Positions 2,826 to 48,974 of a DNA stretch of 64,000 nt are shown here, piece by piece (position 1 is the first letter of the stretch; every line of letters starts with the position of its first letter). Origin of the DNA: Chloroflexota bacterium (GTDB lineage: Bacteria > Chloroflexota > Dehalococcoidia > SM23-28-2 > RBG-16-64-32); contig JADFQV010000001.1 in the NCBI GenBank assembly GCA_022561635.1, forward strand, positions 7,917 through 71,916, given 5' to 3'. A model generated the notes under the pieces. The model did not search any database, was not told the origin of the DNA, and worked only from the letters and a program-made list of their open reading frames with translations. The position numbers and the translations under genes were made by a program.

Positions 2826-4476
2826 CTACTTGCGGCCGAGCGACTGCTTGCTCGGCCGGTCCCGCCGCTGATCGATCAGCTCGTGGCACTCGCCGTCGCT
2901 GATCTCGTAGACGTGCGTAGCCACCTGCTCAAGGATGCCCGGATCGTGGGCGGCGCAGATGATCGTGCCATCGTACTTCGCCAGCACCTCGATCAGCTTG
3001 CGGCGCGTCGTGTGGTCGAGGTGGTTCGTCGGCTCGTCGAGGACGAGGACGTTGGTCGGTTGCACGGTCAGCCGGGCCAACGCGACGCGGCTGCGCTCGC
3101 CGCCGGAAAGCGAGCGGATGCGCTGAAAGACATCGTCCCCGCGGAAGAGGAACTGACCGAGCACCGTTCGCAGACGCTCGTCGCGCGCCGTCGGCGCGGC
3201 GGTCCGCAGCTCCTCGAGGGGCGTCTTGTCCGGATCGAGAGCTTCGTCCTGGTGCTGGTCGTAGTAGCCGCAGCGGGCGAGCTCGGCCCACCGCACGCTA
3301 CCCTCCGTAGGTTGGATGTGGCCGGTGGCGATCTTGAGGAGCGTGCTCTTGCCGCTGCCGTTCGGGCCCACGAGCACGATTTTCTGTCCGCGCTCCACGT
3401 GCAGGTTCACATCAACGAGGACGACGTGGTCAGTCTGGCCGTCCGGGTCGCCCGCTCGTAGCGGATACGCGTGGCCGATGCCCTCCAGGACGAGCACGTC
3501 GTTCTCGGTACGGCCCTGAGCCTGAAGCCCGATGTGCACCTCTGACTCCTTGCTCGGCCGTTTGATGCGCTCGATGCGATCCAGCGCCTTCTGGCGGCTC
3601 TTGACCGCCGTAGCCTTCGTATTCTTGGCGCGAAAACGCTCGATGAAGCGCTCCTGCTTCCTCAGCTGGCTCTCCTGGCGGCCGGCTGCTTTGTCCAGCT
3701 GCTGAAGCTTGGCGGCCTTCACGCGCTGGTACTCGCTATAGTTGCCGTGATAAAGCTCGACCGCGCCCTCGCGTAGCTCCAGGATGCGATTGGCGACGGC
3801 GTCGAGGAACTCGCCGTCGTGGGTGACGATGAGCAGCGCCCCGTTGTAGTCGGAGAGGTCTTCCGCCAACCAGTCGCGAGCGGCTTTGTCGAGGTGGTTG
3901 GTCGGCTCGTCGAGGAGGATGTTGGCGGGGCGTCGCACGAGGACCTTGGCCAGCGCGATGCGCATCTGCCAGCCACCGCTGAAGGCGCCGCAATGCTTCT
4001 TGCGGTCCGGCACCGAGAAGCCCAGCCCGTCCAGCACCCGCGCGATGCGGGACTCGATGCGATAGCCGTCGAGGCGGTCGAACTCCTCGAAGAGCGCGGC
4101 CTGCTCCCCGATCAGCGCGTCGACGTCGCCATCCCCCGCGACGAGTGCGTCGGCGACTTCCGCCAGGCGCAGCTCGATGCGGCGGGCCTCCGGGAAGGCA
4201 GTCCACATCTCGGCGAAGAGAGTGTTGTCGCTCTCGACGCCCGATTCCTGCTTCAGGTAGCCGAGCTCACCCCCGCGGCCCTCGTGCGACTTGCCGGAGA
4301 AGCCCGCCCGGCCCTCGTCCGCCTCGTCCTCGCCGGCGATGAGGCGCAGAAGCGTCGTCTTGCCAGCGCCGTTCGGCCCCACCAGGCCGACGCGCTCGCC
4401 CTTGCCCACGGTGAAGGAGACGCCCTGGAGCACATCCAGGCCGCCGAACGATCGCGCTATGGATTCAGCGAAAAGC
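2826..4476 (-). CDS. ABC-F family ATPase (two tandem ABC domains, no TMD; EttA/Uup-like translation factor)
   Basis: Two Walker A motifs (GPNGAGKT, GPNGSGKS) and two signature motifs (FSGGWQMR, LSGGERSR). True start is ATG 4476 (MLFAESIARSF). The ORF-track N-terminal 150 aa is a spurious Arg-rich read-through that overlaps trxB. Confidence 0.85.
2833..2858. terminator. Perfect 9-bp GC hairpin (cggccgagc/gctcggccg) at the convergent junction of the cupredoxin gene and the ABC-F gene; possible bidirectional terminator
   Basis: Inverted repeat read directly. It lies inside the last codons of the ABC-F CDS, 20 nt past the cupredoxin stop. There is no U-tract. Confidence 0.4.
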
Positions 4477-9862: not shown

Positions 9863-9964
9863 CTCTCATCGAGAGCGGTGGAGGGAACGGCCCTGGGAAG
9901 CCCGGCAACCGGTCTCCGGACACGGTGCCAACTCCGATTCGCCCCCGGGCGAATGAGATGAGAG
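9863..9964 (+). ncRNA. SAM-I (S-box) riboswitch aptamer
   Basis: P1 is CTCTCATC...GATGAGAG. The conserved core is GAGAGCGGTGGAGGGAACGGCCC, then GAAGCCCGGCAACC, then GGTGCCAA, with a P4 hairpin (ATTCGCCC/GGGCGAAT). This is a near-consensus match to the S-box. Confidence 0.8.
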
Positions 9965-9975
9965 TGGAGCATGAG

Positions 9976-10001
9976 ACTTCTCCGCCGCGAGAAGTTTTTT
10001 T
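9976..10001 (+). terminator. Intrinsic terminator forming the riboswitch expression platform (acttctc-cgccgc-gagaagt + T7)
   Basis: A 7-bp stem is followed by TTTTTTT. This is the only clear U-tract terminator in the window. RBS GAGGAG at 10014-10019. Confidence 0.65.
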
Positions 10002-10026
10002 ATACCCGAGAACGAGGAGTAGCGCG

Positions 10027-11080
<1,054 letters not shown>

Positions 11081-11088
<8 letters not shown>

Positions 11089-11962
11089 GGCGATCCGCGC
11101 CGCGGTGATCGGCGGCAGCGGCTTCTACGAGATGGAAGGCCTCTCGGAGATCGAGACGTTGAACGTCGACACGCCGTTCGGGCCGACGAGCGACGCCATT
11201 ACGACGGGCGCGCTGGACGGCCAGAGAGTCGCCTTCCTGCCGCGCCACGGCGTGGGCCACCGCTTACTGCCCGCAGAGATCCCGGCGCGCGCCAACATCT
11301 GGGCGCTCAAGCAGCTGGGCGTCGAGTTCATCGTCAGCGTCAGCGCCGTCGGCAGCCTGCGCGAGGAGATCGAACCGCTGCACCTGGTCGTGCCGGATCA
11401 GTTGATCGACCGCACCAAGGGACGCGCCTCGACGTTCTTCGGCGATGGCCTCGTCGCTCACATCGCGTTCGGCGAGCCGTTCTGCTCTCACCTGAGCGGT
11501 GTCGTCAGCGACGCCGCGGACGAGACGGCGACGACAGTACACCACGAGGGTGCTCTGGTCGTCATCGAGGGCCCGGCGTTCTCGACGCGCGCCGAGTCGA
11601 ACCTTTACCGCGCGTGGGGCGCCGACATCATCGGCATGACAGCGCTGCCCGAAGCCAAGCTGGCGCGCGAAGCGGAGATCTGTTTCGCCGTGCTCGCCTG
11701 CTCGACCGACTACGACTGCTGGCACGAGGGCCACGAGGACGTGACCGCCGAGATGATCGTCGCCAACCTCCTGCGCAACGTCGGCGTCTCGCGACAGGCC
11801 GTGCGCCTGGCTCTGGGACGGCTGCCGGCGACGCGCGAGTGCGCCTGCAAGGACGCCCTCAAGGACGCGCTCGTGACGTCGCTCGACCTCGTGCCGCCAG
11901 CAACGAAGCAGCGCCTTGGGCCGATTATCGCGCGCTACGCCGGGCAGGCGGTGAGCGGATGA
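11081..11962 (+). CDS. mtnP: S-methyl-5'-thioadenosine phosphorylase (PNP/MTAP family)
   Basis: PNP-UDP fold (AVIGGSGFY, LPRHGVGH, IIGMTALPE). The start overlaps the mtnA stop. Confidence 0.85.
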
Positions 11963-44467: not shown

Positions 44468-44570
44468 GCCCTGCGATGATACTACGAAGGATCCGGTTTC
44501 GGAGCGTGAGATACCTCACACAACGGGGGCGCGACGCGTGAGGCAGGGCGCTCCTCGCCTCGACCAACGA

Positions 44571-45167
44571 TCACCTGCCTTGCACGAGCGAGAGGAACTC
44601 GCTGCGGGTGACGCCCCGCCGGCGGAAGCTGCCCCGGATCGCCGAGGTGATCATGCGCGATCCCGGCTTCTGAGCGCCCCGCATCGTCAGGCAAAGGTGC
44701 TCGGCCTCGATGACGACGGCGACGCCGTCCGGGCGCAGGCCCTCCATGATGGCGTCGGCGACCTGGCTCGTCAGGCGCTCTTGCATCTGGGGTCGCCGGG
44801 CCAGGATGTCGACGACGCGGGCCAGCTTGCTGACGCCGACCAAGCGCCCCTCGGGCACGTAGCCGACGTGCGCCTCGCCGTGGAACGGCAGAAAGTGGTG
44901 TTCGCAGAGGGAGTAGAAGGGGATGCTCTTGAGGATCACCATCTCCTTGTGCGATTCATCGAACCCCTTGCGCAGGACGTCCAGCGGGTCCTCGCGCAGC
45001 CCCGAGAAGAGCTCGGCGTAGAGCCGCCCGATCCGCTCCGGCGTTTCGGCCAGCCCCTCCCGCGTGCCGTCTTCGCCGATCGCCGCGATGATCTCGCGGA
45101 CGGCGGCAGCGATGCGCTCCTGGTCGACGTCCTGCGGATCCGTTGGGCCGGCGATACGTGTGTCCAT
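44571..45167 (-). CDS. folE: GTP cyclohydrolase I
   Basis: FYSLCEHHFLPFHG zinc/active-site motif. Confidence 0.9.
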   Translation of the reverse strand: MDTRIAGPTDPQDVDQERIAAAVREIIAAIGEDGTREGLAETPERIGRLYAELFSGLREDPLDVLRKGFDESHKEMVILKSIPFYSLCEHHFLPFHGEAHVGYVPEGRLVGVSKLARVVDILARRPQMQERLTSQVADAIMEGLRPDGVAVVIEAEHLCLTMRGAQKPGSRMITSAIRGSFRRRGVTRSEFLSLVQGR

Positions 45168-45373
45168 CAGGACAGGAATTGTATCAGGCGGCGTCAGCCA
45201 GGCGGCGCGCTGAGGATGTCGAGGCGGGAAGTCATGCCACCAAATTTACCGGAAAGCCAATGCCACGGGCGCTCCCCTCGCGAAAAAGTGGAAGTGTACC
45301 GCAGTGTGGCAAGCTCTCAAAATAGTCCCCAATGCACGTAGACAGCACCGCCATGTCGTAGAATGGCTGCGCC

Positions 45374-46198
45374 ATGGAGCCACGACCCCAGCACGTCCAG
45401 ATTAGGGACAAGAGCCTCCGGGCTGTGGGCCAGTGGGCGCCCTTAGGCCTAGCTGCGCTGACCTTACTACTGTGGGTGGCCCTGGCGGGCCCTGCGATTT
45501 CGGCTGAGCTAGCATCGGAGCTTCGGCCTAACCTTAAAGCGCTGCCGGCAGACGAACTTCGGTTGGAAACCGATTCCGCCGGCCGTACTTATCTGCGGTT
45601 CAGCACGACTACTTGGAACGGCGGATTCGGACCCCTTGAACTCGTGGCCGGTGACAGAGATGCAGCTAAGCAGAACATCCACCAGCGGATCCATCTAGAC
45701 GATGGGAGCTACTATGACGTGCTGGCAGGAACGTTTGAGTGGCACGAGCAGCACGGGCACTTCCACTTTGAGGATTACGCCCTCTACACTCTTCAGGCGG
45801 CCGATGCGCCTGGCGCCTCAGAACGAACTAGCAGTAAGACCACTTTCTGCATCATCGACACCGACCGCATCAACCACAAGCTTCCGGGGGCGCCCAAGCG
45901 ATCCGTGTACAGGACCTGTGGTAGCGAGATTCAAGGCATGTCCGTCGGATGGGGCGACAGGTACCCGTACTACCTAGCTGGGCAGGCGATCGACGTGACT
46001 GATCTGCCCGACGGTGACTACCAACTCACGATCGAGGTCGATCCAAAGAATCGGCTCCTCGAGACGAATGACGCGGACAACACAAGTACCTTGAGCCTTC
46101 GCATCAGCGTGAGCGACGGGACGGTGGAAGAACTGTCTAATGGCGAGAGCGGGCCCGGCAACGGGAATGGACGGGGAAACGGACGAGGTCCTAGGTAG
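45374..46198 (+). CDS. Secreted lysyl-oxidase-like copper amine oxidase (bacterial LOX catalytic domain)
   Basis: Signal peptide. Copper-binding FEWHEQHGHFHFEDY matches the LOX WEWHSCHQHYHSMD box. KTTFCIIDTDRI matches the LOX SFCLEDT box. Local GC is visibly lower than in the flanks. Confidence 0.7.
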   Translation: MEPRPQHVQIRDKSLRAVGQWAPLGLAALTLLLWVALAGPAISAELASELRPNLKALPADELRLETDSAGRTYLRFSTTTWNGGFGPLELVAGDRDAAKQNIHQRIHLDDGSYYDVLAGTFEWHEQHGHFHFEDYALYTLQAADAPGASERTSSKTTFCIIDTDRINHKLPGAPKRSVYRTCGSEIQGMSVGWGDRYPYYLAGQAIDVTDLPDGDYQLTIEVDPKNRLLETNDADNTSTLSLRISVSDGTVEELSNGESGPGNGNGRGNGRGPR

Positions 46199-46386
46199 TT
46201 CGCGGAACTGCATGGGTTCAAGGTTCCCATGCGAGTGTAAGAGGTGCGGTGGTGAGAGCAAGTAATATCGCCACTAGGCAGCCAGCGATACCCGGAACCT
46301 GAGGTCACGGTTGGTTCCCCTCGAGTAGAGCCAAGGGCGGATAATTCCCGCAGCGTTGTGAGCCTCCGTACCGCTTGAGGCGGCGC

Positions 46387-46779
46387 TCACGACCAGAACG
46401 CATCGACCTCGTAGCGGTCTTCGACGAGGAACCAGAACTCGGCGATCCGGCCCTCCGCGATGCGGAACGTCCAGGCTTGCAGCGAGCCGTCCAGCTTCTT
46501 GCCTTCGCGTTCGGCGTGAACGCGGACCAGGGCGATGGCGTAGTCATCGCCGGCCATGACGTCGAGGATCTGCGGGCGCACGGTGCCGTTGGAGAGTTCG
46601 CGCGGGCGGGCGAGGAAGGCGAGCACTTCGTCCGGGCCGCGATAGTCCGCCGAGAGCGGGCTGCGGCCGGGCACGTGCCAGACGACATCGTCGGCCAGCG
46701 CGGCGCGCACGGCGGCTTCGTCGCCGCGGGCCTGGGCGACGAACCAGCTTCGGACCAGCACTTCGTTGACGTGGGGCAT
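46387..46779 (-). CDS. SnoaL-like / NTF2-fold (ketosteroid-isomerase-like) protein
   Basis: 130 aa with the alpha+beta cone pattern. Weak family-level call. Confidence 0.55.
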   Translation of the reverse strand: MPHVNEVLVRSWFVAQARGDEAAVRAALADDVVWHVPGRSPLSADYRGPDEVLAFLARPRELSNGTVRPQILDVMAGDDYAIALVRVHAEREGKKLDGSLQAWTFRIAEGRIAEFWFLVEDRYEVDAFWS

Positions 46780-46841
46780 CTCGGTGGAGACGTTACCAGA
46801 TCACGGCGGAGCAGAGCTGGAGCAGGCGCACAGTCGGCGCC

Positions 46842-47936
46842 CTACGCAAGGCCCATCGCGGACTCGACGGCCGCGAGGTCAGCGTCGACCTCGGGCACTT
46901 CTGCCTCGATGGCGAGGGCGGTTTCTGGGTCCTTGAGGCCGTGGCCGGTGATGACGCAGACGATGGTCTGGTCGCGAAGGCTCTCGGGTCCTTCGAGAGC
47001 CTCAGGACGAGCGGCATACTTGAGGAGACCGGCCACGCAGGCGGCGGAGGCCGGCTCGCAGAAGATTCCCTCTTCTTCGGCCAGGAGGCGGTAGGCGGCC
47101 AGGATCTCTTCGTCGGTGACGGCGCTGATCTCGCCGCCAGACTCGTCGCGGGCGGCGACGGCGGCCTCCCACGAGGCCGGGTTGCCGATGCGAATGGCCG
47201 TGGCCACCGTCTGCGGATCGTCCAGCGGTTCGCCGCGGACGATTGGCGCGGCACCGGCGGCCTGCCAGCCGATCAAGCGCGGCTTCTGGCTGGCCCGCTC
47301 CGCCTGGAAGTACTCGACGAAGCCGCGCCAGTAAGCGGTGATGTTGCCGGCGTTGCCGACGGGGATGAACAGCAGGTCCGGCGCATCGCCCAGGTCGTCG
47401 ACGATCTCGAAGGCGGCGGTCTTCTGGCCCTCGATACGGTGTGGGTTGACGGAGTTGACGAGCGCGATCGGGTGCTTTTCGGAGACCCGGCGGGCGATGG
47501 CGAGCGCGTCGTCGAAGTTGCCGCGGATGGCGAATATCCGGGCGCCGTGGGCGACGGCCTGGGCCAGCTTTCCTTTGGCGACGCGGCCGTGCGGGACGAG
47601 CACGAAGGCGTCGAGGCCGCTGCGCGCAGCATAGGCCGCCGCTGAGGCACTTGTGTTGCCTGTCGACGCGCAGAGGACGGCTCGTGCATCGGCTTCTGCC
47701 GCCTTGGCCACCGCGACGACCATTCCCCGGTCTTTGAACGAGGAGGTCGGGTTGCACATCTCGAGCTTGAAGTAGAGGTCTTTGCAGCCGATGCGCTCGA
47801 TCAGCCGCCGCGAACTGACTAGTGGGGTACCGCCCTCGCCGAGGCTGAGCATCGGCGTCTCGTTGGTGACGGGCAGGCGGTCCCGGTACCGATCGAGAAC
47901 ACCTCGGGCGGCTGGCTTGTCGGTCAAGCGCTCCAA
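46842..47936 (-). CDS. thrC: Threonine synthase
   Basis: PLP-lysine motif SFKDRGM. 364 aa. Confidence 0.85.
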   Translation of the reverse strand: MERLTDKPAARGVLDRYRDRLPVTNETPMLSLGEGGTPLVSSRRLIERIGCKDLYFKLEMCNPTSSFKDRGMVVAVAKAAEADARAVLCASTGNTSASAAAYAARSGLDAFVLVPHGRVAKGKLAQAVAHGARIFAIRGNFDDALAIARRVSEKHPIALVNSVNPHRIEGQKTAAFEIVDDLGDAPDLLFIPVGNAGNITAYWRGFVEYFQAERASQKPRLIGWQAAGAAPIVRGEPLDDPQTVATAIRIGNPASWEAAVAARDESGGEISAVTDEEILAAYRLLAEEEGIFCEPASAACVAGLLKYAARPEALEGPESLRDQTIVCVITGHGLKDPETALAIEAEVPEVDADLAAVESAMGLA

Positions 47937-47966: not shown

Positions 47967-48974
47967 CTAGTCCGTGGAGTGCAGCTCACCCTGAATAAGC
48001 TCCTTGATCTCCTGGTTCAGTGCTTCGGAGGCGCGTCGGCGCTGGCGGAGAAACGTCTGGTAGACCTTCTTCAGTGCTTGCTTCGTCTGGTCCGTCAGGT
48101 CTTCCAGTCGCGCGGCCATCGCCATCAGCTCGCTTGCCTGGTTCTGGCTCCGCTGGTCAAGGCGGCCCAGGCCCTTGATGAACTCGTCCGTACGCTCGGT
48201 GATGTCGGTGGCGATTTGTTCGAGGCTGGCCATGCGCTGGCTGATCTGCTCCCGCTCGTAGGCGGCGCCTTGCAGCGCTTCCTTGGCCTCTTCCTGCGTA
48301 CCGGCGATCAGCTCGATATGCTCCTGGCGCTCCATCACCCTGTGCAGCTGATCGAGGGCCAGGGACAGGCGGTCCGCCAGCCCCTCGCTAGACGCCTCCA
48401 GCCGCTGGAAGTCACCGCTGAAGCGCGCGAACTCCTGGTCCAGCCTCAGCGTCGCCTCGTGGCTGCGATCGGACTTCGTCTGGATATCTTCCATCGCGCG
48501 CTCTCCGGCCTGTGCTTTCAAACGGCCGGCGGCGATCTCCTCTTCGATGTGCCGTGCAACTTCTTCGAGCGCCTTCATGCGGCCGTCGAACTGAGAGATC
48601 GTGCGGCTGATCGACTCCACCTGCTTGGCGACCATACCTACGTCGTATCGCTCCCGTCCGGACTCGGTCTTGCGGCCCTTCCCATCGTGCTCAACGCGGT
48701 CGGCCAGCTGGCCCTGGCGCTCTTGAACCTTGCCCAGCTGCGCGCTTACTTCACGCACTTCCTCTCGAAGCGACTGAATCGTCGCCTCCACTGAGCCGGA
48801 GACAGCCACGCCCTGCAGGACCTTCTGCACTTCGGCGTCGAGCGACCAGGCGATCTTAAGCGCCTGCGCCAGTTCGCCCTCCAGCTTATGCAGCCGCGCT
48901 TTGGTATCGAGGACTTCGCTTTCGAGCCATTCGGTCGAGCCGGAAGTGGGAGCGGCGGCCTTCGTGCGGGGCAC
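47967..48974 (-). CDS. Coiled-coil protein of unknown function
   Basis: 335 aa, almost entirely heptad-like E/Q/R/L-rich helices. ATGA overlap with the hom stop. Confidence 0.6.
   Translation of the reverse strand: MPRTKAAAPTSGSTEWLESEVLDTKARLHKLEGELAQALKIAWSLDAEVQKVLQGVAVSGSVEATIQSLREEVREVSAQLGKVQERQGQLADRVEHDGKGRKTESGRERYDVGMVAKQVESISRTISQFDGRMKALEEVARHIEEEIAAGRLKAQAGERAMEDIQTKSDRSHEATLRLDQEFARFSGDFQRLEASSEGLADRLSLALDQLHRVMERQEHIELIAGTQEEAKEALQGAAYEREQISQRMASLEQIATDITERTDEFIKGLGRLDQRSQNQASELMAMAARLEDLTDQTKQALKKVYQTFLRQRRRASEALNQEIKELIQGELHSTD

Follow-up and report, generated by a model that had tools for sequence, protein, structure and literature searches.

We analyzed a candidate lysyl oxidase (LOX) gene in a 64,000-nucleotide stretch of contig JADFQV010000001.1, from the Chloroflexota bacterium assembly GCA_022561635.1; this whole stretch is referred to here as the window. 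The gene lies in the interval 45168-46386, which is the entire gap separating two genes on the minus strand, folE and a SnoaL_2-family gene. The first encodes GTP cyclohydrolase I (44571-45167; PF01227, E = 2e-72; TIGR00063) and is divergent from LOX, and the second (46387-46779; 130 aa; PF12680, E = 4e-15) is convergent with it; together they form the host-side boundaries of the locus. The single credible open reading frame (ORF) in the gap is that of LOX, at 45374-46198 on the plus strand (274 aa, coordinates including the stop codon), which was identified from the ORF list and its match to PF01186. The remaining listed ORFs are antisense or overlapping shadows with a higher GC content at first codon positions (GC1) than at third positions (GC3). 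LOX is flanked by noncoding stretches of 206 nt (45168-45373; GC 0.587) and 188 nt (46199-46386; GC 0.596), in agreement with the ~200 nt on each side given in an earlier reading of the bare sequence (the original prediction). That reading placed the gene between folE and thrC; folE does adjoin it, but the SnoaL_2-family gene separates it from thrC (46842-47936), which is thus not an immediate neighbor. The orientation of LOX is opposed to that of a co-directional housekeeping array (hom, a coiled-coil gene, thrC, SnoaL, folE, GT4, and PIG-L), and the genes within 10 kb on either side are ribosomal, biosynthetic, or envelope genes.

The ORF matched the PF01186 hidden Markov model with E = 6.8e-15 and 55.7 bits; because the gathering score is 20.4, this match did not arise by chance. 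It spans amino acids 120-242 of LOX, corresponding to profile positions 77-192 of 204. Pfam gave no other domain in the ORF, a search of NCBIfam gave no match, and the identical protein is named 'hypothetical protein [Chloroflexota bacterium]' at NCBI. PF01186 was present in all 120 of 120 homologues among the matches listed. When the sequence was searched against all of the PDB, the sole real match was human LOXL2 (5ZE3; E = 7.8e-8). An AlphaFold2 model built on an alignment of 48 homologues had a mean pLDDT of 85.3 and a pTM of 0.76, with an N-terminal helix (22-37), an all-beta body, and a disordered stretch comprising the last 16 residues. The predicted mature part is a catalytic beta-sandwich domain (amino acids 45-256; 45506-46141, plus strand), for which pLDDT was mostly above 90 over residues 50-250. 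Foldseek comparison of the model with the PDB returned 5ZE3 as the sole match at E ≤ 0.001 (E = 2e-9, probability 1.0), aligning the domain to the LOXL2 catalytic domain over about 236 columns with a TM-score of 0.51 normalized to the query, a value that refers to a predicted model rather than a solved structure. Because the sequence match, the catalytic residues, and the predicted fold agree, we conclude that the ORF encodes a member of the lysyl oxidase family. The gene had dN/dS values of 0.20-0.29 relative to its homologues in three of the retrieved loci (L007, L097, and L100) and is therefore under purifying selection; for the mature domain, the range relative to close homologues was 0.20-0.26.

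The roles of individual residues were assigned by aligning the ORF to 5ZE3 and transferring the assignments made for human LOXL2, whose structure paper identified the metal ligands, the precursors of the lysyl-tyrosylquinone (LTQ) cofactor, one of five disulfides, and the calcium site (Zhang et al. 2018; PMC5899467). The histidine cluster WHEQHGHFHFEDY is located at amino acids 123-135 and the FCIIDTD box at 158-164. The copper 'talon' consists of H124 and H127-x-H129-x-H131 (45743-45766, plus strand), as judged from the LOXL2 alignment and from conservation; H127, H129, and H131 align with LOXL2 H626, H628, and H630, and H124 is the equivalent of H289 of human LOX, the first talon histidine. 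In the same alignment K155 (45836-45838, plus strand) is equivalent to LOXL2 K653, the LTQ lysine, and Y197 (45962-45964, plus strand) to Y689, the LTQ tyrosine and fourth metal ligand. C159 and C182 align with the C657-C673 disulfide, and E230, N232, D235, and N236 with the calcium-site residues E722, D724, N727, and N728. The residues H124, H127, H129, H131, K155, C159, C182, and Y197 were invariant in the 48-homologue alignment and were found in 80-83 of 83 sequences from named genomes. Within that set K155 and Y197 were present in all 83, the talon histidines in 80-82, and H124 (45743-45745) in 80. The first talon histidine was said in 2015 to be missing from bacterial LOX sequences (Grau-Bove et al. 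2015; PMC4448552); contrary to that report, this 'short' bacterial LOX keeps the complete four-histidine copper talon. With the PF01186 match and the retention of the copper histidines and LTQ residues, the earlier designation of the gene as a lysyl-oxidase-like copper enzyme was borne out.

The signature boxes had also been described as those of animal lysyl oxidases, and this description held in part. All four histidines are kept, whereas the strict conserved-site signature IPR019828, WEWHSCHQHYH (PMC4448552), is matched at only 7 of 11 positions by the window sequence FEWHEQHGHFH, in which S, C, Q, and Y are replaced. The catalytic domain has two cysteines (C159 and C182) rather than the 10 of the animal five-disulfide pattern, and the protein lacks an animal-type propeptide and SRCR domains. 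By these sequence features it belongs outside the animal LOX and LOXL subfamilies. Human LOXL2 (5ZE3; PMC5899467) has the same fold, the HxHxH plus tyrosine metal site, the LTQ lysine and tyrosine, a disulfide of the C657-C673 type, and the calcium-site residues; it differs in that the two proteins are only ~20% identical, and in that the window protein is a single-domain protein of 274 aa with a predicted bacterial signal peptide and a Gly/Asn/Arg tail. The signature boxes should not be taken to mean an animal origin: the family is large in prokaryotes, and the nearest relatives are in Dehalococcoidia and Patescibacteria.

The N-terminus of LOX is best read as a Sec signal peptide or signal anchor (amino acids 1-44; 45374-45505, plus strand), in line with the signal peptide noted previously. 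It has a basic n-region (R4, R11, K13, and R16), a hydrophobic stretch at 21-38, and the sequence A-I-S-A at 41-44, and cleavage would probably occur after AISA44 or AGPA41. Conservation among the 48 homologues starts only at about E45, and all of them have a variable hydrophobic N-terminus. At the other end of the protein is a disordered tail rich in Gly, Asn, Arg, and Pro (amino acids 257-274; 46142-46195, plus strand; pLDDT about 38) with the sequence GPGNGNGRGNGRGPR. The GNGNGRGNGRG string was confirmed, so that the histidine cluster, FCIIDTD box, and tail are all present as described. Among 196 homologues that contain the core motif, 44 had a tail of this type; other homologues ended in CPHC-, CPRC-, or CPQC-type sequences, carried an IPT/TIG-like extra domain, or had no tail. 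The tail types of short LOX proteins thus form a conserved, optional appendage (P0019, P0028, P0055, P0063, and the window protein).

The base composition of LOX was compared with that of 54 window ORFs having a coding-like GC pattern, and codon log-likelihoods were computed leave-one-out. LOX has a GC content of 0.598 and a GC3 of 0.684; the corresponding values are 0.688 and 0.910 for folE, 0.695 and 0.885 for the SnoaL-like gene, 0.682 and 0.847 for thrC, and 0.700 and 0.899 for GT4. Its GC3 was the lowest of the 54 ORFs (others 0.825 ± 0.049; z = -2.9), and its synonymous-codon log-likelihood was the second lowest (z = -3.0). Total GC was less extreme (z = -1.75), and by itself would not settle the matter, since some Lys-rich ribosomal-protein genes have values just as low. 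The low GC content that had been estimated by eye was thus confirmed and extended to codon usage, and the composition of LOX is foreign to its Dehalococcoidia-like host genome.

Relatives of the host locus were collected by means of thrC, and comparison with them revealed an inserted segment of ~1.17-1.18 kb (about 45197-46377) containing LOX with ~160-177 nt upstream and ~180 nt downstream. The window DNA flanking both sides of this segment aligned to the relatives, whereas the segment itself did not, placing the breakpoints at about 45197-45213 and 46377/46378. Its GC content is 0.591 overall, with the low value common to LOX and both flanks. Three relatives (L090, L091, and L092) with a thrC 86% identical to that of the window lack LOX and have a SnoaL-folE gap of 28 bp within the gene order glyA, rpsF, ssb, rpsR, surA-like, hom, coiled-coil, thrC, SnoaL, folE, GT4, PIG-L, ccsA, rpsL, rpsG, fusA. 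In L095 (thrC also 86%), SnoaL and folE are adjacent with a gap of 27 bp, LOX is again missing, and the whole order is kept; its DNA is only 81% identical to that of L090. The closest relative, L093 (89.6% DNA identity), has a class-I methyltransferase gene (3098-4111) in the SnoaL/folE slot, in the same orientation as LOX. That gene has a GC content of 0.609 and a GC3 of 0.710, compared to a GC3 of 0.882 for thrC, and it is flanked by a direct duplicate of the SnoaL 3' end that is 100-127 bp long and 88% identical. Such a layout is the hallmark of an element that brings along a surrogate gene end, although no integrase is present. The SnoaL/folE junction is therefore a variable slot, and both of its known cargos have a GC content of ~60%.

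Copies of the junction sequence are found at both ends of the insert as imperfect direct repeats of 11-14 bp, which are short and GC-rich. On the folE side (45186-45213) there are two copies, AGGCGGCGTCA at 45186-45196 and AGGCGGCGCGCTGA at 45200-45213; on the SnoaL side there is one, AGGCGGCGCTCA at 46378-46389, in which TCA corresponds to the SnoaL stop codon read on the opposite strand. In the empty sites the sequence is ...AATTGTATCAGGC(G/A)(C/G)GCGCTCA on the window plus strand or, in the SnoaL to folE direction (window minus strand), TGA-GCGC(GC/TG)CCTGATACAATT...ATG. Generic repeat finding over 44500-46900 gave only short, low-identity pairs; the junction repeat emerged from the comparison with the empty sites. 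The parallel duplication of 100-127 bp in L093 makes a real target duplication at the window junction more likely.

We considered whether LOX could be ancestral at this locus, inherited vertically, and lost from the relatives. Only a handful of relatives were examined, and low expression can also give a low GC3. However, the compact 27-28-bp junction is common to two lineages with a mutual identity of 81%, and in the window its sequence is split and duplicated at the insert ends; insertion with a short target duplication accounts for these copies, whereas precise loss in two lineages does not. In addition, the closest relative has a different low-GC gene in the slot, and the GC content of LOX fits other genomes but not the host, with insert flanks that are also 59% GC. 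Ancestral presence is thus already largely refuted and very improbable. An assembly or binning artefact, in which a chimeric contig joined two organisms, would be consistent with the sharp drop in GC and with the metagenome-assembled genomes that are the source of the data. Against it, independent assemblies from different samples gave this arrangement in at least six records, and host sequence resumes on both sides of the insert with an apparent short target duplication. The exact LOX protein was found on 15 contigs of several assemblies, always in the same context as in the window, and the locus is therefore not chimeric; we regard the chance of an artefact as negligible.

LOX genes encoding proteins of equal length and 83-87% identity were found in at least three contexts other than that of the window. 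In L007 and L101, which represent one locus, the gene follows an acyltransferase gene inside a same-strand array punctuated by repeats. In L097-L099 it lies between small hypothetical genes and a gene for a 680-aa Big_9/CarboxypepD_reg protein, and in L100 it begins 16 bp past an SDR gene. L120, with an SDR gene 92% identical to that of L100, has no LOX, and ~0.25 kb stand where L100 has ~1.06 kb. Homology detected by blastn between the window and the close-homologue loci was confined to the ORF and its immediate edges, reaching 17-24 nt upstream of the ATG and 1-2 nt past the stop codon. The acquisition of LOX by horizontal transfer, which had been proposed from composition and flanks, is strongly supported by empty-site synteny in relatives, by the presence of other cargo in the slot, by the flanking repeats, and by the several contexts of near-identical genes. 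Its solitary movement into unrelated neighborhoods indicates that LOX probably needs no dedicated partner.

The donor pool was probably other Dehalococcoidia with a GC content of ~60-62%, and not animals. Three observations point to it: the match in contig GC, the affiliation of the L100 SDR gene, and the grouping in a tree. LOX GC values of 0.606-0.611 fit the contigs of L097, L099, and L100 (0.60-0.62) and are below those of L007 (0.662) and the window. The best named matches of the L100 SDR neighbor were in Dehalococcoidia and Chloroflexota. A phylogeny had been suggested as the way to find the donor lineage, and the neighbor-joining tree did group the window clade with L009, a Paceibacterota sequence, and Dehalococcoidia sequences; no donor locus was found. 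A metagenome scan for the donor added only L101 and L111, and the nearest LOX copy in species-representative genomes was no closer than 61% identity.

The family as a whole is large, with 5047 representatives of 50%-identity clusters at E ≤ 1e-3 and 457 matches in species-representative genomes. The 457 were in Patescibacteria, Chloroflexota, Beta- and Gammaproteobacteria, Actinomycetota, Nitrospira, Methylomirabilota, Acidobacteriota, and Planctomycetota, and in most of these genomes the GC content of LOX follows that of the host. The nearest named relatives of the window protein were from Paceibacterota, Adlerbacteria, Saccharibacteria, Dehalococcoidia, and Nitrospira. LOX homologues in bacteria and archaea were described in 2015, when horizontal gene transfer (HGT) was invoked to explain them and the list of five bacterial phyla did not include Chloroflexi (Grau-Bove et al. 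2015; PMC4448552). A 'short' LOX group containing Truepera, Deinococcus pimensis, Nitrospira nitrosa, and Parcubacteria was mentioned later (Pestov et al. 2019; PMC6452851, Fig. 6 legend). It resembles the window protein in having a signal peptide plus a LOX domain and in its patchy distribution and HGT; the membership of the window protein in this group is deduced from taxa and length rather than from a joint tree.

The literature search found one biochemically characterized prokaryotic LOX, HTU-LOX of Haloterrigena turkmenica, which is an active amine oxidase of broad specificity, sensitive to beta-aminopropionitrile (BAPN), once its N-terminus has been removed, and whose function is described as cryptic (PMC6452851). 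It provides the best functional model for the window protein: both have a hydrophobic N-terminus and were acquired by HGT, and HTU-LOX became active after N-terminal truncation and refolding with copper. It differs in being archaeal and in having an autoinhibitory stretch, Ala39-Gln92, with no demonstrated counterpart in the window protein.

Taken together, these results lead us to the reading, to which we give a probability of roughly 0.8, that the window encodes a Sec-exported, single-domain, prokaryotic 'short' LOX (PF01186) acquired as a single-gene insert from a pool of other Dehalococcoidia. A ~1.17-kb insert of 59% GC with a single gene landed in the 27-28-bp SnoaL-folE spacer, and the likely source is Dehalococcoidia of ~60-62% GC, among which LOX is a mobile accessory gene. 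The protein would be exported by Sec and would probably lose about 44 residues from its N-terminus. The beta-sandwich domain would then bind Cu(II) through H127, H129, H131, and Y197, and copper and O2 would convert Y197 and K155 to a self-generated LTQ cofactor. Outside the cell the enzyme would oxidatively deaminate primary amines to aldehydes, NH3, and H2O2; candidate substrates are peptidyl-lysine side chains, free amines, and polymer-bound amines. The analysis directly shows the family membership by sequence and fold, the retention of every catalytic residue, the purifying selection, the insertion, and the foreign composition, whereas export, LTQ formation, activity, promoter, and donor are all elements that we infer.

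Several points weigh against this reading. The N-terminus could be an uncleaved membrane anchor, LTQ formation and amine-oxidase activity are predictions from sequence, and the animal signature is matched at 7 of 11 positions only. HTU-LOX had no detectable native activity in its own host (PMC6452851), and the atypical codon usage of LOX might lead to poor expression. With respect to acquisition, the junction repeat could be partly due to chance, being short and GC-rich; no integrase or transposase was present within 10 kb of LOX, and the insert holds LOX only. With respect to the donor, the parts of the insert outside the ORF (~140 nt and ~180 nt) matched nothing retrieved when compared by blastn with contigs L007, L008, L097-L101, and L111, and the neighbor-joining tree had no support values.

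The insert probably carried its own -10 element. The hexamer TAGAAT (45359-45364, plus strand) is a -10-like sequence 9 nt before the ATG, and there is no Shine-Dalgarno sequence; these two features point to a putative promoter for a leaderless or near-leaderless LOX mRNA. In the 17-24 nt upstream of the ATG, which are the only upstream sequence that the window has in common with L007, L097, and L101, L097 has TACAAT at the same distance from the ATG. A simple sigma-70 scan did not call the TAGAAT box, and simple promoter and terminator scans gave one weak site each, both on the minus strand and neither above shuffled sequences. Downstream of LOX, the minimum-free-energy fold contains a hairpin, GCATGGG-N9-CCCATGC (46210-46232, plus strand), 12 nt past the stop codon with no T-run, which is possibly a transcript-end structure; folding of the 3' flank as a whole was not unusual (z = -0.62). 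Rfam gave no match at E ≤ 1 over 45100-46450, and thus neither flank holds a riboswitch or known small RNA.

The role of the enzyme was considered next to its genomic setting. In the model set by animal LOX, which acts on collagen and elastin, the window protein would cross-link lysines in proteins that make up the envelope, sheath, S-layer, or spore coat of its own cell. The canonical reaction of the family does act on peptidyl-lysine (PMC5899467), the protein is probably exported, and in L097 and L098 an 85%-identical LOX lies just upstream of the gene for the 680-aa surface-type protein. However, LOX arrived in the window alone among housekeeping genes, and no sporulation or sheath genes were seen near it. 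The gene was found in at least four unrelated contexts, so that it is not accompanied by a substrate gene when it moves. The specificity of HTU-LOX is relaxed (PMC6452851), and cross-linking of bacterial collagen-like proteins was judged unlikely by Grau-Bove et al. (PMC4448552). Cross-linking of this kind is thus unlikely, and the spore-coat or sheath role proposed originally, for which no structural or substrate gene came along into the housekeeping surroundings, is unsupported, though it is not disproved.

A second alternative is that LOX is carried along silently or is decaying and currently does nothing for its host, similar to the 'cryptic' enzyme of H. turkmenica. Its foreign codon usage, the lack of partner genes, and the very low expression of HTU-LOX in its host (PMC6452851) fit such a view. 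Against it are the intact ORF with all catalytic residues kept, the dN/dS of 0.2-0.3, the identity of the protein on 15 contigs from different samples, and the conserved -10-like element upstream, and we consider it improbable, more so than cross-linking. Since LOX moves by itself into unrelated neighborhoods, we favor a self-sufficient extracellular amine or peptidyl-lysine oxidase of broad specificity over an enzyme dedicated to cross-linking one structural protein. Possible uses of such an enzyme are the modification of surface proteins, the release of nitrogen from amines, the inactivation of amine-bearing antibiotics, and the production of H2O2. Copper amine oxidases, with topaquinone (TPQ), and LodA and GoxA, with cysteine tryptophylquinone (CTQ), likewise convert amines to aldehydes, NH3, and H2O2 by means of self-made quinone cofactors. 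Enzymes of the LodA type are secreted, and the H2O2 that they generate makes them antimicrobial, a possible parallel to LOX. The folds and cofactors of these enzymes are unrelated to those of LOX, and none showed a sequence or fold match to the window protein. LOXL2 has no overall structural similarity to copper amine oxidases (PMC5899467). The inactivation of amine-bearing antibiotics is an activity of which HTU-LOX is capable (PMC6452851).

A survey of conserved neighbors at 80 genome loci showed that genes for small secreted Cys-rich proteins, LuxR-type regulators, and DsbA-like proteins recur beside the long-form LOX genes of Proteobacteria and Nitrospira. Because none of these was present in the window, they are uninformative about the role of the window gene. 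The Cys-rich protein (120-160 aa) is encoded 58-164 bp upstream of the long-form gene on the same strand in Nitrospira, Beta- and Gammaproteobacteria, Methylomirabilota, and one Dehalococcoidia genome (L023, L026, L029, L033, L035, L042, L045, L049, L057, L070, and L072). One such protein had a weak, below-threshold match to the MopE-type copper-binding motif PF11617 (E = 1e-4), and these proteins could be copper chaperones or substrates. A LuxR-type regulator was near the long-form gene at 17 loci and a DsbA-like gene at 3.

This locus adds Chloroflexota (Dehalococcoidia) to the bacterial lineages with LOX-family enzymes, and it gives an unusually clean before-and-after view of the acquisition of such a gene, with an empty site, a filled site, and a slot with other cargo. 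The movement of LOX by itself argues for bacterial LOX being a self-sufficient extracellular amine oxidase rather than a part dedicated to building a matrix, which bears on the purpose of prokaryotic LOX and on the bacterial origins of the enzyme that cross-links the animal matrix. The present picture is not substantially changed: bacterial LOX homologues, of which there are thousands, have been known since 2015, and the transfer itself is clear but fairly ordinary.

The most unusual aspect is the recurrence of single-gene insertion without an integrase and with apparent duplication of target ends. It is conceivable, though doubtful, that LOX and the L093 methyltransferase are cargo of an undescribed, integrase-less traffic of single-gene cassettes in Dehalococcoidia that leaves target-end duplicates and may form same-strand arrays. 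Each cassette would enter at the end of a host gene, where an imperfect copy of the target gene's end would remain; examples would be the 11-14 bp in the window, the 100-127 bp from the 3' end of SnoaL in L093, and the cyclase 3'-end fragment that follows LOX in L007 and L100. Same-strand arrays could carry a ~180-bp repeat with a terminal -10 box before each unrelated gene, as in L007. Such a system, if real, would be functionally integron-like while having no recognizable attC or intI; by eye, the insert region contained no convincing RYYYAAC/GTTRRRY pair.

Some features of the related loci are recorded here in their own right. In L007 (2182-9836), a repeat unit of ~180 bp precedes several unrelated same-strand genes, LOX among them, in an integron-like layout. 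The unit comprises five copies of an 83-nt core plus parts of 80 nt and 63 nt ending in GATGTCGTAGAAT(A/G)GC; on the reverse strand it resembles 5' coding fragments of comEC and comEA. Only its last 24 nt (45350-45373) are retained in the window. In both L007 (9428-9471 and 5691-5734) and L100 (about 2330-2380), LOX is followed by what looks like the 3' end of an adenylate/guanylate-cyclase-domain gene (...LYEVRWRD*); this fragment could be left over from a previous insertion site and have moved together with LOX. L111 has a partial LOX 3' portion (901-1527) followed ~230 bp later by another LOX 5' start, and thus carries tandem or rearranged copies.

Two observations concern other parts of the window. 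Between thrC and hom, a minus-strand gene (47967-48974) encodes a 335-aa coiled-coil-like protein with no Pfam family; because its position is kept in all of the relatives examined (L090, L094, L095, and L096), the gene is a lineage-specific member of a threonine-biosynthesis cluster that is standard in other respects. When the whole window was searched with Rfam at gathering thresholds, the sole match was an S-adenosylmethionine (SAM) riboswitch (RF00162; 80 bits; 9863-9964, plus strand). It precedes genes for an MtnA-like protein of the IF-2B family and an MTAP-like phosphorylase (ORFs 9967-11088 and 11081-11962), an ordinary-looking arrangement that puts methionine salvage under SAM control.

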